DNA from: an uncultured Hyphomicrobiales bacterium
GTDB taxonomy: Bacteria; Pseudomonadota; Alphaproteobacteria; Reyranellales; JAQSWP01
Assembly: GCA_964388115.1 (NCBI GenBank)
Contig: CAYLYK010000004.1
Span: 150,975 to 214,974, forward strand
DNA: 64,000 nt
Reading direction: 5' to 3'
Shown: positions 409-51,980 of the stretch, piece after piece
How the letters are laid out: each line of letters starts with the position of its first letter
Position numbering within the stretch: the first letter of the stretch is position 1
Made by a program: the position numbers and the translations under genes
Notes under the pieces: generated by a model
The model's database searches: none
What the model was told of the DNA's origin: nothing
Seen by the model: only the letters and a program-made list of their open reading frames with translations

Positions 409-1607
409 GCGGCGGGCATCGGTCCCGTGTAGCGCGCCCTCGGGCGGATGAGCTGCGGCGTGGCGCTCTGCTCCAGATGATGCGCCACCCAGCCGGCGGC
501 GCGGCCCAGCAGGAACAACGCCAGCCCGCCATTGGCTGGCAGGCGCAGCACGCGCTCGATGGTGGCCAGCGCGAAATCGATATTGGGTTTGCGGTCGGTC
601 ATGGCTTCGGCGATCTCCGCCGTGCGCAGCGCCAGATCGAGCGCGGGATTGCCGGCGTAGTCGCGCTGCAGAAGCTCGAGCAGAAATTTCGCGCGCGGAT
701 CGCCCTCGGGATAGAGCCAGTGGCCGATGCCGGGCAGCCGTTCGCCACCCTGCAGCCTCGTGCGCAAGGTGCCGCGCAGATCGCCCGATTTTTCCAGCTC
801 GCCGAACAGCGTCACCATGCGCGGCGTCACGCCGCCATGGCGTGGCCCCTGCAGTGCCGCCAGCCCGGCCATGGTCGAGCCGTAGACGGTGGTGCCCGTC
901 GCCGCCACCACGCGCACGGCGAAGGCCGAGGCATTCAGCTCGTGATCGGCGCTCATCACCAGCGCCGCGCGAAGCACGTTCGCGGCTTTGGCATCGAGCT
1001 TCCAGCCTTGCGCCAGCACGCGATGCGCGGCCTGCGCCGAGACCGGCATGCCAGCGACGATGGCCGACAACAGGCGCACCACGCGCACGCCGCATTCCAC
1101 GATGCCGGCCCGGTCGAGATTCCAGGCGCGGTCGTCGAGGATCGCCGCATGCGGCAGCAGCGCCAGGCAGCGATCGAGCGGCGGCATGTCGGCAATGCCG
1201 GCCCAGGCGCGGCGCACGCGCCCGTCGCTGGGCGGCAGATTGTCGGCGGCAAAGGGAAGCTCATCGCAATCCCACAGCAGGCGCGCGACTTCTTCCAGGG
1301 TCGCGTTTGCCGCCAGATCGGCGGCGTTGCGGCCGCGATAGTAAAGTTTGTTGTCGGCGATCAGGGTCAGCGCCGATTCCAGTACCGGCGCTCCGAAATG
1401 CAGCGCGCCCGAGGCCACCGCTTCCGCTTTGCGCCCACGCGCCTTCCTGGCCTGCAGTGCTTTGACATCGGCCGCCGCGTAGAGCCGTGAGCGGCTGCCT
1501 TCGGGCGCTTCCGAGCGGATCAGCCCGCGGCTGACATAGGCGTACAGCGTCGGCAGCGAGACGCCCAAGGCCTTGGCGGCTTCGGAAGCGGACAGGTGAC
1601 GTTTCAT
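405..1607 (-). CDS. Helix-turn-helix domain fused to a citrate synthase-like domain (citrate synthase family protein)
   Basis: N-terminal 'LSASEAAKALGVSLPTLYAYVSRG' resembles an excisionase/MerR-type HTH. The remainder carries citrate synthase fold motifs 'SADHELNAS', 'GIGHWLYPEGDPRA', 'PNIDFAL', 'GRAAGWVAHHLEQ'. Confidence 0.8.
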   Translation of the reverse strand: MKRHLSASEAAKALGVSLPTLYAYVSRGLIRSEAPEGSRSRLYAAADVKALQARKARGRKAEAVASGALHFGAPVLESALTLIADNKLYYRGRNAADLAANATLEEVARLLWDCDELPFAADNLPPSDGRVRRAWAGIADMPPLDRCLALLPHAAILDDRAWNLDRAGIVECGVRVVRLLSAIVAGMPVSAQAAHRVLAQGWKLDAKAANVLRAALVMSADHELNASAFAVRVVAATGTTVYGSTMAGLAALQGPRHGGVTPRMVTLFGELEKSGDLRGTLRTRLQGGERLPGIGHWLYPEGDPRAKFLLELLQRDYAGNPALDLALRTAEIAEAMTDRKPNIDFALATIERVLRLPANGGLALFLLGRAAGWVAHHLEQSATPQLIRPRARYTGPMPAA

Positions 1608-1693: not shown

Positions 1694-2782
1694 ATGAGCA
1701 AAAGCGGATTGGACGGCGTCATCGCCGCCGAAACCCGGCTCAGCCATGTGGATGGCGAAGCCGGCCGGTTGATCGTCGCCGGGCACGAATTGCCTGAGCT
1801 GGTGCGCGATTACGGCTTTGAAGGCACCACGGCGCTGCTGTGGGAAGGGCTGGCGCCGGAAGGTGGCGATCGCACGGCCGTATTGAAGGGGCTCGGCAAG
1901 GCCCGCCAGGAGGCTTTCGCCTACGTTCCTGCCCTGCTCTCGGTGTCGAAGGATCTGACGGTCGTCGAAGCGCTGCGCGTCGGCCTCGGCCTGCTGCCCG
2001 ACAGCGCGAAGACGCCGCATCATCTTCTGGCCACTGCCGCCCTGCCTACGTTCCTCGCCGCGCTGCTGCGCCAGAAATCGGGCAAACCTGCGATTGCTCC
2101 GGACGCCTCGCTGAACACCGCCGCCGACATGCTGCGCATGATGCGTGGCGAGCGCGCGCCGCAAGCGGAGGAGAAAGCGCTCGACGCCTATCTCACCACC
2201 ATCGCCGATCACGGCTTCAACGCCTCGACTTTCGCCGCCCGCGTCGTCGCCTCGACCCAGGCCGGGCTGATCTCCGCCGTGCTGGGCGGCCTGTGCGCGC
2301 TGAAAGGCCCGCTGCATGGCGGCGCGCCGGGGCCGGTGCTGGACATGCTCGACGAGATCGGCAGCAGCGCCAACATCCTGCCCTGGCTCGACCAGGCGGT
2401 GCGCGACGGCGAGCGGCTGATGGGCTTTGGCCATCGCATCTACAAGGTGCGCGATCCGCGCGCCGACGTTTTGAAGTCGGTGGTCGCAACGCTGAGCGGC
2501 CAGAACGGGCGCATGCATTTCGCCGCCGAAGTCGAGGCCGGCGCCATCGCCACGTTGCGCCGGCTGAAGCCGAACCAGCGGCTGGACACCAATGTCGAGT
2601 TCTATACGGCGCTGGTGCTGGAGGCGGTCGGCCTGCCGCGCGAGGCTTTCACGGCCGTTTTCGCCGTCGGCAGAGTGGCCGGCTGGTGCGCCCATATCCT
2701 CGAGCAGGAGCAGACCGGCCGCATTATCCGCCCGCAGTCGCGCTACATCGGACCGATGCCGTCGCATCCGGCAGCCGCCTAG
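1694..2782 (+). CDS. Citrate synthase / 2-methylcitrate synthase family protein
   Basis: 'IADHGFNAST', 'GFGHRIYKVRDPRA', 'GRVAGWCAHILEQ'. GGAGGG RBS just upstream of the ATG. The usual NVDFY motif reads NVEFY here. Confidence 0.85.
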   Translation: MSKSGLDGVIAAETRLSHVDGEAGRLIVAGHELPELVRDYGFEGTTALLWEGLAPEGGDRTAVLKGLGKARQEAFAYVPALLSVSKDLTVVEALRVGLGLLPDSAKTPHHLLATAALPTFLAALLRQKSGKPAIAPDASLNTAADMLRMMRGERAPQAEEKALDAYLTTIADHGFNASTFAARVVASTQAGLISAVLGGLCALKGPLHGGAPGPVLDMLDEIGSSANILPWLDQAVRDGERLMGFGHRIYKVRDPRADVLKSVVATLSGQNGRMHFAAEVEAGAIATLRRLKPNQRLDTNVEFYTALVLEAVGLPREAFTAVFAVGRVAGWCAHILEQEQTGRIIRPQSRYIGPMPSHPAAA

Positions 2783-2802
2783 GAGATTGTTTTATTTGGC
2801 AG

Positions 2803-2829
2803 ACGGGCGTCTTCGGACGCCCGTTTTCC
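2803..2829 (+). terminator. Rho-independent terminator candidate
   Basis: ACGGGCGTC-TTCG-GACGCCCGT followed by TTTCC, 20 nt after the stop codon. Confidence 0.6.
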
Positions 2830-2841
2830 ATTGGTGCGACC

Positions 2842-2866
2842 ATTGCACCATTTGATTTGGTGCAAT
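2842..2866. promoter_or_regulatory. Inverted repeat ATTGCACCA-N7-TGGTGCAAT (operator candidate) upstream of the LLM oxidoreductase gene
   Basis: Perfect 9-bp arms. A third related half-site TTGGTGCGA lies at 2830-2838. Confidence 0.4.
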
Positions 2867-2919
2867 CCTTCGAATTAACATCATCCTCCAAGAATCAATG
2901 ACCGGTCGTGGAGGAACAA

Positions 2920-3999
2920 ATGGAACGGATCGAACTGGGCTGGTTCATCCCGACGCACAACGACACCACGGCCTATGGCGACCCGTCCGCCGAAGTCCCC
3001 GCCTCGCTCGAGATGTTCGACCGCGTCACCCAGGCGGCCGAAGATGCCGGCTTCGAATACCTGCTGATCCCGGTCAACCAACATTGCTGGGAAGCCTGGA
3101 TGACCGGCGCCATCATGGCCGCGCGCACCAGGACCATCAAACCGCTGATCGCCGCCCGGCCGGGCTACATCAACCCGGTGCTGCTGGCCAAGATGATCTC
3201 GACCTTCGATCAGCTCACGGGCGGGCGCATCTGCATCAACCTGATCGCCGGCTTGAGCGACGAGCAGTCGGCGAACGAGGGTTTGAAGTTCTCGAAGGAA
3301 GACCGCTATCTGCTGATGGAAGAGGAAGTCAGCATCCTGAAGGCGCTGTGGACCGCCAAAGGCCCGATCGACTTCAAGGGCAAGTTCTACGATTTGAAGA
3401 ACGTCAGCATCACGCCGAAGATCTTCCAGAAGCCCTATCCCAAATTCTATCTCGGTGGCGGCTCGCGCGAGGCGTGGGAAATCTCCGCCAAGCATTCCAG
3501 CGTGCATTTGTTCTGGGGCGACCATCCCGATCGCATCCGCGATCAGATGGCGCAGATCCGCGAGATCGCCCGCAACTACGGGCGCGAAAAGGAAATCGGC
3601 TTCGGCATGCGCCTGCAGATCGTCTGCCGCGAAACCGAGAAGCAAGCCTGGGACGCAGCCGAGCGACTGGTCAGCAGCGCCACGCCCGAACTGCTGCAGC
3701 GGACCGCCACCCAGTACGGCACCTCGGCCGCCAACAAGCGCATGCAGGAGTTGGCCAAGACCGACAACAGCCTGATCATGCCGCATCTATGGACCGGCAT
3801 CACCAAGGTGCGCGCCGGCGCTGGCGTGGCGATCGTCGGCAATCCCGAGCAATGCGCCGCCACCTTGCAGAAATTCATCGATGTCGGCTGCCACTCCTTC
3901 TGCCTGTCGGGCTACCTGCACGACGAGGAGGCCGAGCGCTTCGGCCGCATGGTCCTGCCGCTGCTGCGGGCGCGCAATCCGGACCGGATCGCCGCCTGA
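2920..3999 (+). CDS. LLM-class (luciferase-like) flavin-dependent oxidoreductase/monooxygenase
   Basis: Overall luciferase-like monooxygenase pattern (SsuD/NtaA-like length and motifs). Start moved from GTG 2908 to ATG 2920, which follows GGAGGA. Confidence 0.8.
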   Translation: MERIELGWFIPTHNDTTAYGDPSAEVPASLEMFDRVTQAAEDAGFEYLLIPVNQHCWEAWMTGAIMAARTRTIKPLIAARPGYINPVLLAKMISTFDQLTGGRICINLIAGLSDEQSANEGLKFSKEDRYLLMEEEVSILKALWTAKGPIDFKGKFYDLKNVSITPKIFQKPYPKFYLGGGSREAWEISAKHSSVHLFWGDHPDRIRDQMAQIREIARNYGREKEIGFGMRLQIVCRETEKQAWDAAERLVSSATPELLQRTATQYGTSAANKRMQELAKTDNSLIMPHLWTGITKVRAGAGVAIVGNPEQCAATLQKFIDVGCHSFCLSGYLHDEEAERFGRMVLPLLRARNPDRIAA

Positions 4000-47549: not shown

Positions 47550-48314
47550 ATGCTTGCCCCCAAAAACATTCTCATCACCGGCGCCTCAAGCGGCATCGGC
47601 GAAGCGCTGGCGCTGGAATATGCCGCGCCCGGCATCTTCCTCGCGCTTACCGGCCGCGATGCCGCGCGTCTGGAAAGCGTCGCCGCCGCCGCCCGCGCCA
47701 AGGGCGCCAGCGTCGAAGCCAGGACCATCGACGTCGTCGATCGCGCCGGCATGACAAGCTGGCTGCAGCAACTTGACACGGGCCATCCCCTGGAACTCGT
47801 CATCGCCAATGCCGGCGTCGGGCTGGAAGGCGATCGCAAGCTGCCCGAGGAAGAAGCCATGCGCGGCACTTTCGCCATCAACATCGATGGCGTGCTGAAC
47901 ACGGTGCTGCCGCTGCTGCCGGCCTTCCGCGCCCGCAAGTGCGGCCAGTTCGCCATCGTGGCGTCGCTGGCAAGCTTCATCGGCCTGCCGCAATCGGCCG
48001 CCTATAACGGCAGCAAGGCCGCCGTGCGGGTGTGGGGCGAGAGCCTGCGCCTGATCGAGCGCCGCAACGGCGTGGAAGTGAACGTGATCTGCCCGGGCTT
48101 CGTGGTCAGCCGCATGACCGCGCGCAACAAATTCCCCATGCCGTTCCTGATGTCGGCGGAGAAAGCCGCGCGCATCATCAGGAGCGGGCTCGCGCGCAAC
48201 AAGGCGCGCATCGCCTTCCCGTTCGGCACCAAGGCCGCGGTGTGGCTGGGCATCACCCTGCCCGGCTCGTGGACCGACCGGCTGATGCAAGGCGGCGGAT
48301 CGCGCATCAAGTGA
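47550..48314 (+). CDS. SDR family NAD(P)-dependent oxidoreductase
   Basis: 'ITGASSGIGEAL' (TGxxxGxG) and 'YNGSKAA' (YxxxK). Confidence 0.82.
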   Translation: MLAPKNILITGASSGIGEALALEYAAPGIFLALTGRDAARLESVAAAARAKGASVEARTIDVVDRAGMTSWLQQLDTGHPLELVIANAGVGLEGDRKLPEEEAMRGTFAINIDGVLNTVLPLLPAFRARKCGQFAIVASLASFIGLPQSAAYNGSKAAVRVWGESLRLIERRNGVEVNVICPGFVVSRMTARNKFPMPFLMSAEKAARIIRSGLARNKARIAFPFGTKAAVWLGITLPGSWTDRLMQGGGSRIK

Positions 48315-49489
48315 GCACGCTGTCGCCACGCCAGCAGAGTCTGGCGGTATGGCTGTCTTCCGGCGCGCTGGCGATGGCGCTGACCGGCGACCAGCTGCTT
48401 TACATTGTGCTGCCGCTGTCGACCGACGCATTCGGCGTCTCCATCGTCTGGGTCGGCATCCTGCTGTCGGCCAATCGCTGGATCAGAGTGGCGCTTTACA
48501 GCGAAGTGGCCCGCTTCGGCAATCGCGTCGGCCCGCGCACGCTCACCATGATCGCCGCGCTGGGCGCGGTCGCTTCTACTGCCGCCTACGGCTTCCTCGA
48601 GGGCGGGCCGCTGCTGCTGGTGGCGCGCATCGTCTGGGGCCTGTCCTTTGCCGCGCTCAATCTCACGACGCTGGTCTATGCGCTGGGCGGCGGCGAAGCG
48701 TCCGGCCGCAGGGTCGGCACCAGCCGCGCCATTCGCGAGATCGGTCCTATCGTCGCTGCCGCCAGTGGCGCCTGGCTCGCGACGACATTGGGACCGCGCG
48801 AAGCCTTCTGGGCCATGACGGTCCTGACCTTGTTGGCCGTGCCGATGGCGTTTGCTTTGCCGAAGGCCGCACCCGGCGACGTGTCGCCCGCAACGCCCCG
48901 CCGCTTCCGCCTCACCCGGCCGTCGACCTTCAATCTCTTCTCCTTCGCCGTCGGGCTGGCGGGCGATGGCATCTTCATGGTCACGATCGGCCTGCTGTTC
49001 CTGCAGGAAGTGTCGGCGCAGATGGCGATGCTGTCGGCCGGCGGCGTGATGGCGCTGCGCCATCTGGTGGTGCTGCTCGTCAGCCCCGTCGGCGGTCTGC
49101 TCGCCGACCGCTTCGGCGCGCCGCGCACCCTGCTGGGCTCGGCGCTGGCGATGACGGCGGGCTTCGCGCTGGTGCCGTTCGACCTGGTCTATGTCGCCGC
49201 CGTGTTCATGCTGGTCGGCCGCGGCATCCTGGCCGTGGTCTCGCCGTTGATCGTGGCACGCACCATCAAAGGCGACGTCATGACGGCAGTTTCCGCCAAT
49301 GCCAGCTGGGCCGATCTCGGCGCGGCGACGGGGCCGCTGCTGGCCGGCTTCAGCGTCGGCCTGGTGTCGCTCGACGCGCTCTATGGCGGCGCGGCGGTAT
49401 TGCTATTCGTGCTGCTGATGGGCTGGGCGGCGTTGGAATGGAAGCCCGCTCCGGGCAGGGAAATCGACGAGCGGCGCCAACGTCGATGA
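48311..49489 (+). CDS. MFS transporter
   Basis: ~12 predicted TM segments. GTGA overlap with the SDR stop. The track ORF from 48032 is a spurious extension. Confidence 0.72.
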   Translation: MSTLSPRQQSLAVWLSSGALAMALTGDQLLYIVLPLSTDAFGVSIVWVGILLSANRWIRVALYSEVARFGNRVGPRTLTMIAALGAVASTAAYGFLEGGPLLLVARIVWGLSFAALNLTTLVYALGGGEASGRRVGTSRAIREIGPIVAAASGAWLATTLGPREAFWAMTVLTLLAVPMAFALPKAAPGDVSPATPRRFRLTRPSTFNLFSFAVGLAGDGIFMVTIGLLFLQEVSAQMAMLSAGGVMALRHLVVLLVSPVGGLLADRFGAPRTLLGSALAMTAGFALVPFDLVYVAAVFMLVGRGILAVVSPLIVARTIKGDVMTAVSANASWADLGAATGPLLAGFSVGLVSLDALYGGAAVLLFVLLMGWAALEWKPAPGREIDERRQRR

Positions 49490-49604
49490 CGTCGGCGCCG
49501 GTCTCTTGCGGCAGCATCTTCTTTTCAGTCAGCCGCTACCGTGACATCGCATGCCTCTCGAATGCGAAACCCGATGTCCATCGCCGATGGACGCCAGCTC
49601 CCGA

Positions 49605-49844
49605 CTAATTCGCCGACAGCCTCGCGCTGCCTGCGCAGTAGTTCGCCGCACGAGCAATTGAAGTTTGAATCCACAAACCGGCGCCCAACATGTTGTCGCC
49701 CAAAACATACAGCTCTGCATATTCCTGCACGCAGGCCCGGTATGCGGGAGTGCCGGGTTTCAGCTGCGCGTGGGCCGTGCCGGCCGTTACGGCCATCGCC
49801 ACCACCGGCGCGAAAACGATCGTCAAAAAGCTGCGGATCATCAT
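49605..49844 (-). CDS. Small Sec-secreted two-cysteine protein, paralogue A
   Basis: AGGAGG RBS. Signal peptide ending 'AHA'. Mature part shares 'PAYRAC..EYAE.Y' and 'A.YC.G' with paralogues B and C. Confidence 0.6.
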   Translation of the reverse strand: MMIRSFLTIVFAPVVAMAVTAGTAHAQLKPGTPAYRACVQEYAELYVLGDNMLGAGLWIQTSIARAANYCAGSARLSAN

Positions 49845-50150
49845 TTCCTCCTAATACCGAGAAGTATTACGCCAAAGTATTAGACGGAGTGCGGACTCAG
49901 AACACAACATGGACCGCGGCGACAACGGTGCTATTCCAGCGCCAGTTGCTATCTCGCAACGTCATGAATTCAGAAAGATGTTGGATAAGTCGTCCGCTAT
50001 TCAAATGCCAGATAGCGGTATCGGCGGTACTTGGGATTGGACATCGATCGAACACGGCGGAAGCGGGGCAAAGCATAGCGCCATGGCGATTTCAGATGAC
50101 TGCCTGCCTGTCCATTCACTTTCGACAGAAACGACTATCGCCGCTGCTCG

Positions 50151-50188
50151 CGCTGAATCCGCCGCCAGTTGGCGACGTTGCGGTTGTG
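50151..50188. repeat. 38-bp direct-repeat copy of the mltG 3-prime end (gene-end remnant)
   Basis: CGCTGAATCCGCCGCCAGTTGGCGACGTTGCGGTTGTG matches 51010-51047 at 37 of 38 positions. The minus strand reads '..HNRNVANWRRIQREQRR*' versus the mltG C-terminus 'HNRNVANWRRIQREQKK*'. Confidence 0.75.
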
Positions 50189-50240
50189 CTGCTGATGGCG
50201 TGGTTCGCGTTCGAGCGACGGTAAAGACACGCCTGTCCGC

Positions 50241-50279
50241 AAACGAAATCGGCGCAGACTTGGCGAAGTCTGCGCCGAT
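50241..50279 (-). terminator. Rho-independent terminator after small-protein gene B
   Basis: 14-bp perfect stem ATCGGCGCAGACTT / AAGTCTGCGCCGAT with a 4-nt loop, followed on the minus strand by TTCGTTT. Confidence 0.6.
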
Positions 50280-50304
50280 GATGGAATCGATCGTCAAGCT
50301 CCTT

Positions 50305-50523
50305 CTAATAAGGCGAGAGCCGCATGGTGCCGGAGCAGTAGCTTGCCGCTTGAAGAATTGCGTAACCCAGCGATCCTCCGCCTCCCGGCAAATCCTCGCC
50401 CATCATGTAACGCTCAGCGCTCGCGTGCAGACAAGCGCGATACGCGGGGCCGGCATTCGCGGGCCCGATTGCGGCCAGCGTCGCGACCGCAGCGAAAGAC
50501 AGCAACAAGAGCCTGGATTTCAT
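50305..50523 (-). CDS. Small Sec-secreted two-cysteine protein, paralogue B
   Basis: GGAGAG RBS. Signal peptide ending 'ANA'. 'GPAYRACLH...AASYCSGTMRLSPY'. Confidence 0.6.
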   Translation of the reverse strand: MKSRLLLLSFAAVATLAAIGPANAGPAYRACLHASAERYMMGEDLPGGGGSLGYAILQAASYCSGTMRLSPY

Positions 50524-50626
50524 TCGTCTCTCCGAAAATTCAAATCAACGATGAACCACTGACCGTGAATCGCAGAGCGGCAATCACGTCGGCGGATCGC
50601 AACGTCCGATGCCGACGTCCTGCTGG

Positions 50627-50842
50627 CTATACCGGGGAAAGCCGCATGGTGCCGGAGCAATAGCTGGCCGCCTTCAGAATGGCGACGCCGAGCGATCCGC
50701 CGGCAAACATATTGCCGCCCACCGCATAAATCTCGGCGTATTCGTGCAAACAGGCCCGATAGGCCGGCGTGGCATGCGCTGACGTGTTGAGCGCGATAAA
50801 GGCGGGAAATGCGAGCAGAATGGAGAATAGTCTGACTTTCAT
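50627..50842 (-). CDS. Small Sec-secreted two-cysteine protein, paralogue C
   Basis: 'MKVRLFSILLAFPAFIALNTSAHA' signal peptide. 'TPAYRACLHEYAEIY...AASYCSGTMRLSPV'. Start 50842 preferred over 50854. Confidence 0.6.
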   Translation of the reverse strand: MKVRLFSILLAFPAFIALNTSAHATPAYRACLHEYAEIYAVGGNMFAGGSLGVAILKAASYCSGTMRLSPV

Positions 50843-50993
50843 GAACACCCCCATCTAGAGCTAAAGAATATGAGACGAAGGTAGCAGAACACCTGTCCAG
50901 CGCTGGCAACAAGCTCTAGCTGCTAATGAACCTATTATCCCCATTTATATTCGGATCAACTTCGAGGAGGGAGTATGAGGACGGAGGAATGAA

Positions 50994-51980
50994 TTACTTC
51001 TTTTGCTCCCGCTGAATCCGTCGCCAGTTGGCGACGTTGCGGTTGTGTTGTTCCAGCGTCTCGGCGAAGGCGTGGCCGCCGGTGCCGTCGGCGACGAAGA
51101 AGATTTCCTTGCTCTGGATCGGATTGAGCGTGGCTTCGATGGCGGCGCGGCCGGGGTTGGCGATCGGTCCCGGCGGCAGGCCGGCGATCGAATAGGTGTT
51201 GTAGGCCGAGGGCGACTGCACGTCGTTGCGCGTGAGCGTGCGGTCGAGCGGGCCGCTGCCTTTGGTGATGCCGTAGATGGTAGTGGGATCGGATTCCAGC
51301 CGCATCCCCAGGCGCAGGCGATTGATGAACACCGCCGCCACGCGCGGCCGCTCCGACGCCACGCCGGTTTCCTTCTCGACGATGGAGGCGAGCGTCAGCG
51401 CCTCCTCCTTGCTGACCAGCGGCAGGTCCTGCTGCCGCTTGGCCCAGGCGGCGTCGAGCGCCTCGGTCATCGCCTGGCGCATGCGCTGCACCACCGCATC
51501 GCGGCTGTCGCCCAGGCTGTAGTGATAGGTCTCGGGCAGCAGAGTGCCTTCGGCCGGCCGCAGCGAGATGTTGCCTTCCAGCCCCTCGACCTCGCGCACG
51601 ATCTTCAGTACTTCGGCCACGGTCAGGCCTTCAGGGACGGTGAAGCGGCGGATGACGGTGCGGCCCGAGCGCATCTGCTCGATGGCCGACATCACCGTGG
51701 TGCCGGCCTGGAACTCGTATTCGCCGGCGCGCAGCGGACGACGATCCTTCTCCAGACGCAACGCCACGCGGAACAGCAGGTCATCGGCAATCACGCCCTG
51801 CTTTTCCAGCAGCGCGCCGATCTCGCCGCTGCCGGTGCCCTTGGGGACCACGACGACCTTGGGCGCGGTCAGCGGGCCGGGCGCTTCGAGCTGGTGCTGC
51901 AGATAGAAATAGCCGCCGGCCGCCGCGACGGCGGCGCCGACGATCAATGTCAGGAAAAGGCGGAGGACGAAGCGGCCCAA
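50994..51980 (-). CDS. mltG: Endolytic murein transglycosylase MltG (YceG-like)
   Basis: N-terminal TM segment. 'LASIVEKE' catalytic-Glu motif. 'PGPIANPG'. Confidence 0.9.
   Translation of the reverse strand: MGRFVLRLFLTLIVGAAVAAAGGYFYLQHQLEAPGPLTAPKVVVVPKGTGSGEIGALLEKQGVIADDLLFRVALRLEKDRRPLRAGEYEFQAGTTVMSAIEQMRSGRTVIRRFTVPEGLTVAEVLKIVREVEGLEGNISLRPAEGTLLPETYHYSLGDSRDAVVQRMRQAMTEALDAAWAKRQQDLPLVSKEEALTLASIVEKETGVASERPRVAAVFINRLRLGMRLESDPTTIYGITKGSGPLDRTLTRNDVQSPSAYNTYSIAGLPPGPIANPGRAAIEATLNPIQSKEIFFVADGTGGHAFAETLEQHNRNVANWRRIQREQKK

Follow-up and report, generated by a model that had tools for sequence, protein, structure and literature searches.

Three genes for small two-cysteine proteins of an orphan family, predicted to be exported, in the mltG-MFS gap of a Reyranellales genome

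The mltG-MFS gap and its genes

The window analysed here is a stretch of 64,000 nucleotides (nt) from an uncultured Hyphomicrobiales bacterium (assembly GCA_964388115.1, contig CAYLYK010000004.1), and its positions 49490-50993 contain three small genes, here called A, B and C, which are under purifying selection and belong to an orphan, unnamed, extremely rare and lineage-restricted family of proteins of about 5 kDa. This interval is the exact gap between two convergent genes, one coding for a transporter of the major facilitator superfamily (MFS; stop at 49489) and the other being mltG (stop at 50994). Gene C has the same orientation as mltG and begins 152 nt beyond it, and gene B lies 103 nt downstream of gene C. 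The genes of the gap and its two flanks are the following.

50627-50842, minus strand: gene C, coding for a 71-residue precursor; public assemblies contain an identical protein (P0001).
50305-50523, minus strand: gene B, coding for a 72-residue precursor (P0002 in public assemblies).
49605-49841 or 49605-49844, minus strand: gene A, coding for a precursor of 78 or 79 residues (P0003, with 78 residues, in public assemblies).
50994-51980, minus strand: mltG (YceG family), the upstream flank; Pfam YceG, E 1.8e-83, and TIGR00247, E 1.2e-70.
48311-49489, plus strand: MFS transporter gene, convergent with the small genes; Pfam MFS_1, E 3.3e-22, with a 392-residue call from the public assembly.

Besides mltG and the MFS gene, fabF, an SDR gene and yicC are found nearby. 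A first-pass annotation, made from the letters of this DNA, had described three minus-strand open reading frames (ORFs) in a lower-GC pocket, and both the frames and the pocket were confirmed: the GC content is 0.51-0.61 across 49400-51050 and 0.65-0.72 in the flanks, and the GC content at third codon positions (GC3) is 0.70-0.74 in genes A, B and C, compared with 0.87-0.90 in mltG, the MFS gene and fabF. The strings resembling ribosome-binding sites that it had read upstream of A, B and C (AGGAGG, GGAGAG and GGGGGTG, respectively) are also all present. In gene A, two ATG codons follow the AGGAGG string, at distances of only 2 nt (ATG at 49844) and 5 nt (ATG at 49841), and the second of them, which gives the 78-residue form P0003, is therefore the likelier start.

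Purifying selection and age of the paralogues

Non-synonymous and synonymous divergence (dN and dS) was estimated by the Nei-Gojobori method, taking the mature part and the signal peptide separately, against orthologues of the A type (P0005, P0006 and P0007) and of the C type (P0004). In the mature part, dN/dS is 0.05 between C and P0004 (19 synonymous and 5 non-synonymous differences), 0.18 between A and P0005 and 0.15 between A and P0006. The signal peptides of these orthologue pairs change far faster (dN 0.27-0.7), with the A-x-A motif and the hydrophobicity persisting. As a calibration, mltG of the window and of the contig carrying P0004 differ by a dS of 0.47 and a dN of 0.08, and the MFS gene of the window differs from those of the P0005 and P0007 contigs by a dN of 0.11; with a dN of 0.05-0.09, the constraint on the mature peptides is therefore no weaker than that on mltG and the MFS gene. 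The first-pass annotation had proposed genuine paralogous genes and had named a lack of purifying selection as grounds for abandoning that view; the ratios of 0.05-0.18 reveal purifying selection, and A, B and C are real genes. Spurious or non-coding ORFs, which were also considered, are ruled out by the same ratios.

The paralogues of the window differ from one another by a dS of 1.15-2.1 (saturated) and share 40-59% amino-acid identity. Since dS is above 1 and orthologues of A and C are found in other genomes, the duplication is old, not recent. It had been suggested that B and C derive from a recent duplication or from gene conversion, because their 3' ends are nearly identical at the DNA level. 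This similarity is real (81% over 69 nt, with a core of 30/32 nt) and the stretch encodes an identical 13-residue peptide, AASYCSGTMRLSP, but a recent duplication of B and C is ruled out by their overall dS of ~1.2, and synonymous differences are still present in the identical patch; a short tract of gene conversion is a possible origin. Several old subtypes can be distinguished in the family: A, B/C and, in other genomes, an 'LPxNTPI(Y/F)RAC' type.

A separate observation concerns two A-type genes of other loci, L006:661-900 and L005:2014-2253, which differ by a dS of 0.18 and a dN of 0 in the signal-peptide half and by a dS of 1.08 and a dN of 0.26 in the mature half. This mosaic suggests a recombination breakpoint within the gene.

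Family membership and rarity

The searches covered ~15 billion proteins in all, and ~17 distinct family sequences are known. A profile made of A, B and C retrieved 7 proteins among 5.8 billion, 3 of which are the window's own, and a broader profile retrieved 14 from the same set. Among 1.84 billion cluster representatives, searched exhaustively with HMMER, there were 12 matches at E <= 1e-3, of which ~9 or 10 are genuine; P0013 and P0014 were discarded as repeat-protein false positives, and P0015 (hmmsearch E 4e-4) has only a motif in common with the family.

The first-pass annotation could not place these proteins in any named family, and database searches agree with it. The best Pfam-A matches have E values of 0.06-0.2, far below the gathering scores, and NCBIfam, PADLOC and PHROGs, searched with A, B, C and distant relatives, returned nothing meaningful. 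The profile found no PDB sequence at an E value better than 0.86, and two Foldseek searches of the PDB with moderate-confidence models reached best E values of 2.8 and 5.4. A literature search for small periplasmic disulfide-bonded helical hairpins yielded nothing relevant. Small Sec-exported, disulfide-bonded envelope proteins are known as a general kind, and what is new here is the orphan family itself.

Relatives of its MltG place the window in the Reyranellales (Alphaproteobacteria): the best matches are uncultured metagenome-assembled genomes, with 81-85% identity, and those of Reyranella and Enhydrobacter share ~50-56%. When a hidden Markov model of the family was run over stop-to-stop ORFs in 80 GTDB mltG loci, the family was found in 1 of the 80 (locus L014). 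Pattern scans with A/B/C-type patterns detected no relative in GTDB genomes and none in JGI metagenome contigs, where a D-type pattern recovered only the already known L092 contig. The mltG-MFS gap of a single Reyranellales subclade houses every member whose location could be established.

Synteny and copy number

Every homologue with informative flanks is located within the mltG-MFS gap or adjoins remnants of either gene, and the number of copies ranges from 0 to at least 3 across related genomes (percentages are the identity of MltG to that of the window):

L012 (MltG 83%): no small gene; mltG and the MFS gene are 73 nt apart.
L013 (MltG 81%): no family match; the gap is of 234 nt.
L014 (MltG 85%): one gene, coding for P0012.
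Window: three genes.
L005 (MltG not on contig): three family genes (at least 3) and an unrelated 94-residue secreted Cys protein.
L007 (MltG not on contig): a truncated copy.
L092 (MltG 61%): one family gene and, on the other strand, a gene for a 100-residue secreted protein with four Cys.

The description of an expanding family given by the first-pass annotation is correct only in part, given that the locus expands, as attested by genomes with 0, 1, 3 and at least 3 copies and by the junction fossils described below, but also contracts. Similarly, recurrence beside mltG and variable copy number, which it had proposed to survey, are both observed among the carriers, but the family is absent from L012, L013 and 76 further Reyranella-type mltG loci. 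The orientation also varies: in L097, a C-like gene (P0008, at 911-1129 on the plus strand) and the 3' end of mltG (1307-1408, minus strand) are convergent, unlike the co-directional genes of the window.

Two further observations were made in these loci. Positions 952-1095 of L007 are a truncated copy of a gene that is intact at L005:1049-1270, which shows that members of the array are still decaying or being lost. In addition, a second family of small secreted proteins occurs in the same gap (L092:2193-2495 and L005:25-309, both on the minus strand); its members carry a signal peptide, consist of 94-100 residues, four of them Cys, and contain a linker rich in Gly and Asn. This second family is unrelated to the family of A, B and C and is without a copy in the window. 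The mltG-MFS gap seems to collect genes for small secreted proteins generally.

A junction fossil and the history of the array

Between genes A and B, at 50135-50224, there is a junction composed of remnants of the two flanking genes, which the first-pass annotation had overlooked:

50135-50191, minus strand: mltG 3' remnant, reading HNRNVANWRRIQREQRR followed by a stop; left half of the junction.
50186-50224, plus strand: MFS 3' remnant, reading VLLMAWFAFERR followed by a stop; right half of the junction.

The mltG remnant is 94% identical to mltG 51004-51050 over 47 nt (50145-50191; E 2e-15). The MFS remnant, with 29 nt 79% identical to MFS 49409-49437, is weak at the DNA level (E 0.09), and the end of its peptide agrees with the C-terminal ends of the MFS proteins of L012 and L014, as well as with the remnant of L005. 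The two remnants diverge from the junction and overlap in a short GTG(C/T)TG microhomology, so that the distal end of one unit abuts the proximal end of the next, as in a tandem duplication. mltG and the MFS gene are the donors of the two halves, and the junction between A and B shows that the array originated by duplication or recombination.

Longer MFS remnants, of 90-99 residues, are present in L005, L007 and L097 (E 1e-23 to 1e-26), and L092 contains a 95-residue MFS remnant together with a 51-residue piece of mltG; the equivalents of the MFS remnant in L005, L092 and L097 give E values of 1e-7 to 1e-26. Equivalent junctions were identified in L005, L092, L097 and L011, and their breakpoints differ among the window, L005/L097, L011 and L092, so such events must have recurred. 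The junction is the one expected from the tandem repetition of a unit whose two ends lie within the 3' ends of the MFS gene and of mltG; unit 1 (~49409-50188) carries A and unit 2 (~50186-51047) carries B and C, the latter two representing a further internal duplication (spacing 322 nt). The array was built by illegitimate tandem duplication or by unequal recombination in a permissive gap. The locus provides an unusually clean record of small-gene multiplication, in which breakpoints can be read as fragments of flanking genes and empty, single-copy and larger-array genomes are all available, and it constitutes a tidy small model of how lineage-specific secreted proteins are born, stacked and lost.

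Other features of these junctions and flanks were also noted. In L092, the junction remnants (1722-2117) are 82-90% identical to their parents (1208-1310 and 2667-3031), and the units at both sides of the junction carry unrelated cargo, with no mutual similarity in a self-BLAST; this looks like a stacking of different alleles and not like a plain in-situ duplication. In the window, the functional MFS gene ends with an extended tail (...EWKPAPGREIDERRQRR and stop, 49409-49489) and the remnant keeps the shorter ...AFERR and stop, as in L012 and L014, so the active MFS 3' end seems to have changed after the duplication. A near-perfect 18-nt palindrome, CGTCGCCAACTGGCGACG (minus strand), lies in the mltG 3' end at 51018-51035 (coding for NVANW) and is preserved in the remnant at 50159-50176; it may simply reflect the conserved peptide.

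Candidate transcription signals

Three features of possible relevance for transcription were located in the gap:

50248-50279, minus strand: intrinsic-terminator-like hairpin after gene B, with a 14-bp stem, a 4-nt loop and a T-rich tail.
50875-50887, minus strand: soft upstream block CTGCTACCTTCGT, ~35-45 nt before the ATG of gene C.
49871-49883, minus strand: related upstream block CTAATACTTTGGC, before gene A.

A strong terminator after gene B had been reported, and the hairpin with its T-rich tail (stem 50279-50248) corresponds to it. The terminator scan found no terminator-like site between C and B, nor between mltG and C. Since there is no such site from C to B and a strong one after B, in the simplest organization C and B would probably be co-transcribed, with A forming its own unit. 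A search of Rfam with 49300-51200 gave a sub-threshold match to CRISPR-DR20 as the sole result, and this candidate was rejected as a chance match to the same hairpin. Just past the stop of gene A, at 49576-49592 on the minus strand, there is a 7-bp hairpin (GTCCATC-GGC-GATGGAC) with a weak T-containing tail, possibly a weak terminator that the scan missed.

No sigma-70 promoter was found by the promoter scan. Alignments of upstream regions revealed a block resembling CTAATACTTTCGT ~35-45 nt upstream of A-type and C-type starts in several genomes (L010:808-818 included), although as a pattern over the whole window it lacks significance, and an exact copy was found in just one other locus. This block may be the -10 region of a promoter or a shared operator.

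Predicted export and fold

The precursors start with M(K/I)(x)R, followed by a hydrophobic core and A-x-A, and, as read from the sequence, they conform to what is expected of substrates of Sec and signal peptidase I (a basic n-region, an h-region of ~12-15 residues and small residues at -3/-1, here A-x-A). The signal peptides end in AHA (A), ANA (B) and AHA (C), as the first-pass annotation had described, and almost every one of the ~17 members retains the A-x-A column, while the remaining signal peptide diverges freely. Neither a lipobox Cys nor a twin-arginine motif is present in the signal peptides of A, B and C. The three genes are thus predicted to encode small proteins exported by Sec and cleaved by signal peptidase I.

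Gene C has the signal peptide MKVRLFSILLAFPAFIALNTSAHA and a mature part of 47 residues, TPAYRAC...SYCSGTMRLSPV, in which the cysteines are Cys7 and Cys38; the mature part has 48 residues in B and 53 in A (QLKPGTPAYRAC...NYCAGSARLSAN). These mature parts have masses of 4.9-5.6 kDa and isoelectric points (pI) of 6.7-8.0, are Gly/Ala-rich and moderately hydrophobic (the grand average of hydropathy of C is 0.44), and share the pattern PAYRAC...Y..G...I..A..YC.G..RLS. Exactly two conserved cysteines had been announced, about 32-34 residues apart, and two are indeed found in each mature protein, with a measured spacing of 31-32 residues (32 in A, 32 in B and 31 in C). The pair is kept in all relatives (~17 sequences), in whose alignment the only invariant mature positions are A6, C7, A34 and C38, with T-P and R nearly so.

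AlphaFold2 (AF2) modelling of full-length C, from a 14-sequence alignment, gave a predicted local distance difference test score (pLDDT) of 61.6, with helices at 26-41 and 51-64 following the signal-peptide helix. For mature C, from a 17-sequence alignment, the pLDDT was 67.3, and the helices, at 2-17 and 27-43, are separated by a Gly-rich loop. In this second model the centre of the loop lies at equal distances from Cys7 and Cys38, a symmetry that an inter-helix disulfide staple would require; the predicted fold, at modest confidence, is a two-helix hairpin in which the two Cys would face each other. After export by Sec and cleavage by signal peptidase I behind the conserved A-x-A, the two cysteines, one close to the beginning of helix 1 and the other close to where helix 2 ends, would form one intramolecular disulfide in the oxidising periplasm, and this bond would staple an antiparallel hairpin with the Gly-rich loop between its helices; a hairpin of this small size would not fold stably without the bond. 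Plant alpha-hairpinins and CHCH (twin CX9C) domains are eukaryotic and carry two disulfides, in CX3C or CX9C pairs. The structural analogy with them consists of two antiparallel helices bonded by an inter-helix disulfide (the hairpin being a prediction in the present case), whereas the family described here is bacterial, apparently Sec-exported, and contains only one pair of Cys, at a spacing of 31-33 residues.

Proposed role and alternatives

The interpretation that we favour, with a probability of roughly 55%, is that A, B and C are periplasmic, possibly released, hairpin binding modules that act on envelope targets. Each module would have its own envelope target, and they would be neither enzymes nor partners of MltG; since the subtypes are old and each of them is conserved individually, each subtype would have a specific molecular partner. 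If this is true, they represent a previously undescribed family among the poorly charted very small proteins of the bacterial envelope. Several points weigh against this interpretation. The AF2 models reach no more than a moderate confidence (pLDDT 62-67), the term 'binding module' is generic, and Sec export alone is compatible with either retention in the periplasm or release. Furthermore, the paralogues (dS above 1) are far more diverged than the remnants are from their parents (~70-94% identity), and a simple single in-situ duplication is therefore insufficient to explain the array. Two explanations of this mismatch are possible: the remnants could have been kept alike by gene conversion from their functional neighbours, or gap alleles that had already diverged could have been joined by recombination in the conserved flanks. 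A bolder extension of the latter, quite speculative and rather unlikely, is that the gap is a dedicated stacking site, where diverged alleles (hairpin subtypes and even the unrelated four-Cys protein) are joined by illegitimate or Campbell-type recombination in the 3' ends of the flanks to generate strain-specific repertoires, the hairpins being polymorphic envelope effectors of a new class, exported by Sec and stapled by a disulfide (e.g. in kin discrimination or in competition between close relatives).

The first-pass annotation had instead proposed, from the position of the genes downstream of mltG, that they code for periplasmic inhibitors or modulators of MltG or other muramidases, similar to Ivy and MliC. 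It is true that gene C lies close behind mltG, co-directional and with no terminator-like site between them, and that the family always occurs beside mltG or a remnant of it, but it is equally always beside the MFS gene, and this adjacency is explained because the gap is the site where the units multiply. The relatives with empty gaps (L012 and L013, with MltG identities of 83% and 81% and the same mltG-MFS arrangement) and the 76 further Reyranella-type mltG loci manage without any small gene, the C-like gene of L097 is convergent with mltG, and gene A is cut off from mltG by the terminator and the junction. Ivy, MliC and PliC are periplasmic, Sec-exported, beta-rich proteins of ~100-130 residues that contain disulfides. 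The products of A, B and C are likewise small, with predicted Sec export and a predicted disulfide, and could in principle adjoin cell-wall genes, but they have 47-53 mature residues, a predicted all-helical fold and a presence that is uncoupled from mltG, and no Pfam match to the Ivy/MliC/PliC families (PF08816, PF09864) appears at E <= 1. A functional link to MltG is consequently very improbable: nothing supports an interaction, although its absence is not proven, and mltG is the donor of a remnant and not a demonstrated partner. No long-standing question is opened by these results, and the more exciting idea of a new MltG inhibitor is removed. Hardly more credible is the idea that A, B and C have no function and are either young ORFs or duplicates in decay, in a stretch of intergenic DNA that is unstable. 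The extremely narrow distribution, the lower GC3, the truncated and lost copies of relatives and the pseudogene fragments of flanking genes all around would fit it, yet it is already largely refuted by the selection analysis (mature dN/dS of 0.05-0.18, with dN as low as in mltG and the MFS gene) and by a Cys pair and an A-x-A that are invariant or nearly so in ~17 sequences, even where MltG is only 61% identical.

Two other roles are unlikely but deserve consideration. The hairpins could be Sec-dependent, bacteriocin-like competition peptides that target the envelopes of competing relatives after leaving the cell through leakage, in vesicles or by type II secretion, and the variable, stacked array would then reflect competition between strains. 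Their patchy, strain-variable presence and variable copy number, the GC3 below that of the neighbours, the Gly/Ala-rich and moderately hydrophobic mature peptides, the different cargo of L092 units with homologous flanks and the unrelated small secreted Cys protein found elsewhere in the same gap are all in line with this role. Class II microcins rely on a double-glycine leader and a PCAT exporter, and their immunity gene is adjacent. The family could resemble these and the Sec-dependent class II bacteriocins, which are unmodified, ribosomally made peptides of ~5-9 kDa, often Gly/Ala-rich, with one disulfide and strain-variable loci, but its leader is of the Sec type, ending in A-x-A without a GG/GA motif, and the locus contains no immunity gene, no ABC/PCAT exporter and no other secretion gene. 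The peptides are also near neutral (pI 4.6-8.0), there is no evident route across the outer membrane, and the subtypes are under strong purifying, not diversifying, selection. The other role, equally doubtful, is that of MgrB-like periplasmic regulators that tune a histidine kinase or an anti-sigma factor, with paralogues for different sensors or conditions. MgrB is a lineage-restricted envelope peptide of ~47 residues, linked to PhoQ, that keeps an uncleaved transmembrane anchor and needs its periplasmic Cys pair for function, and the family is similar to it in being small, predicted to reside in the envelope and equipped with a Cys pair that looks essential; the individual conservation of each paralogue type, and the apparent upstream block of each of A and C, suggesting separate regulation, would also be compatible with such a role. 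However, the conserved A-x-A predicts a cleaved, soluble peptide instead of a membrane anchor, no two-component, sigma or anti-sigma genes are adjacent, and no sequence similarity to MgrB exists. The family belongs to none of the groups compared here, whether helical hairpins, small envelope regulators or Sec-dependent bacteriocins.

A partial resemblance to a known sequence

The protein P0015 (213 residues, metagenomic) is composed of four repeats of the type 'C..KGL(K/T)P(G/D)TDAFR.C', with the motif 'C..KGLKPGTDAFRAC'. The segment LKPGTPAYRAC of the mature hairpins matches the P0015 repeat 'GLKPGTDAFRAC' (hhalign probability 81% over 29 columns), but P0015 differs from them in its length (~200 residues), its four repeats and the spacing of its Cys pair (~15 residues). 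P0015 belongs to a tiny, unannotated family of its own, one member of which carries PF28484. As the similarity extends over one helix only, it may be convergent.

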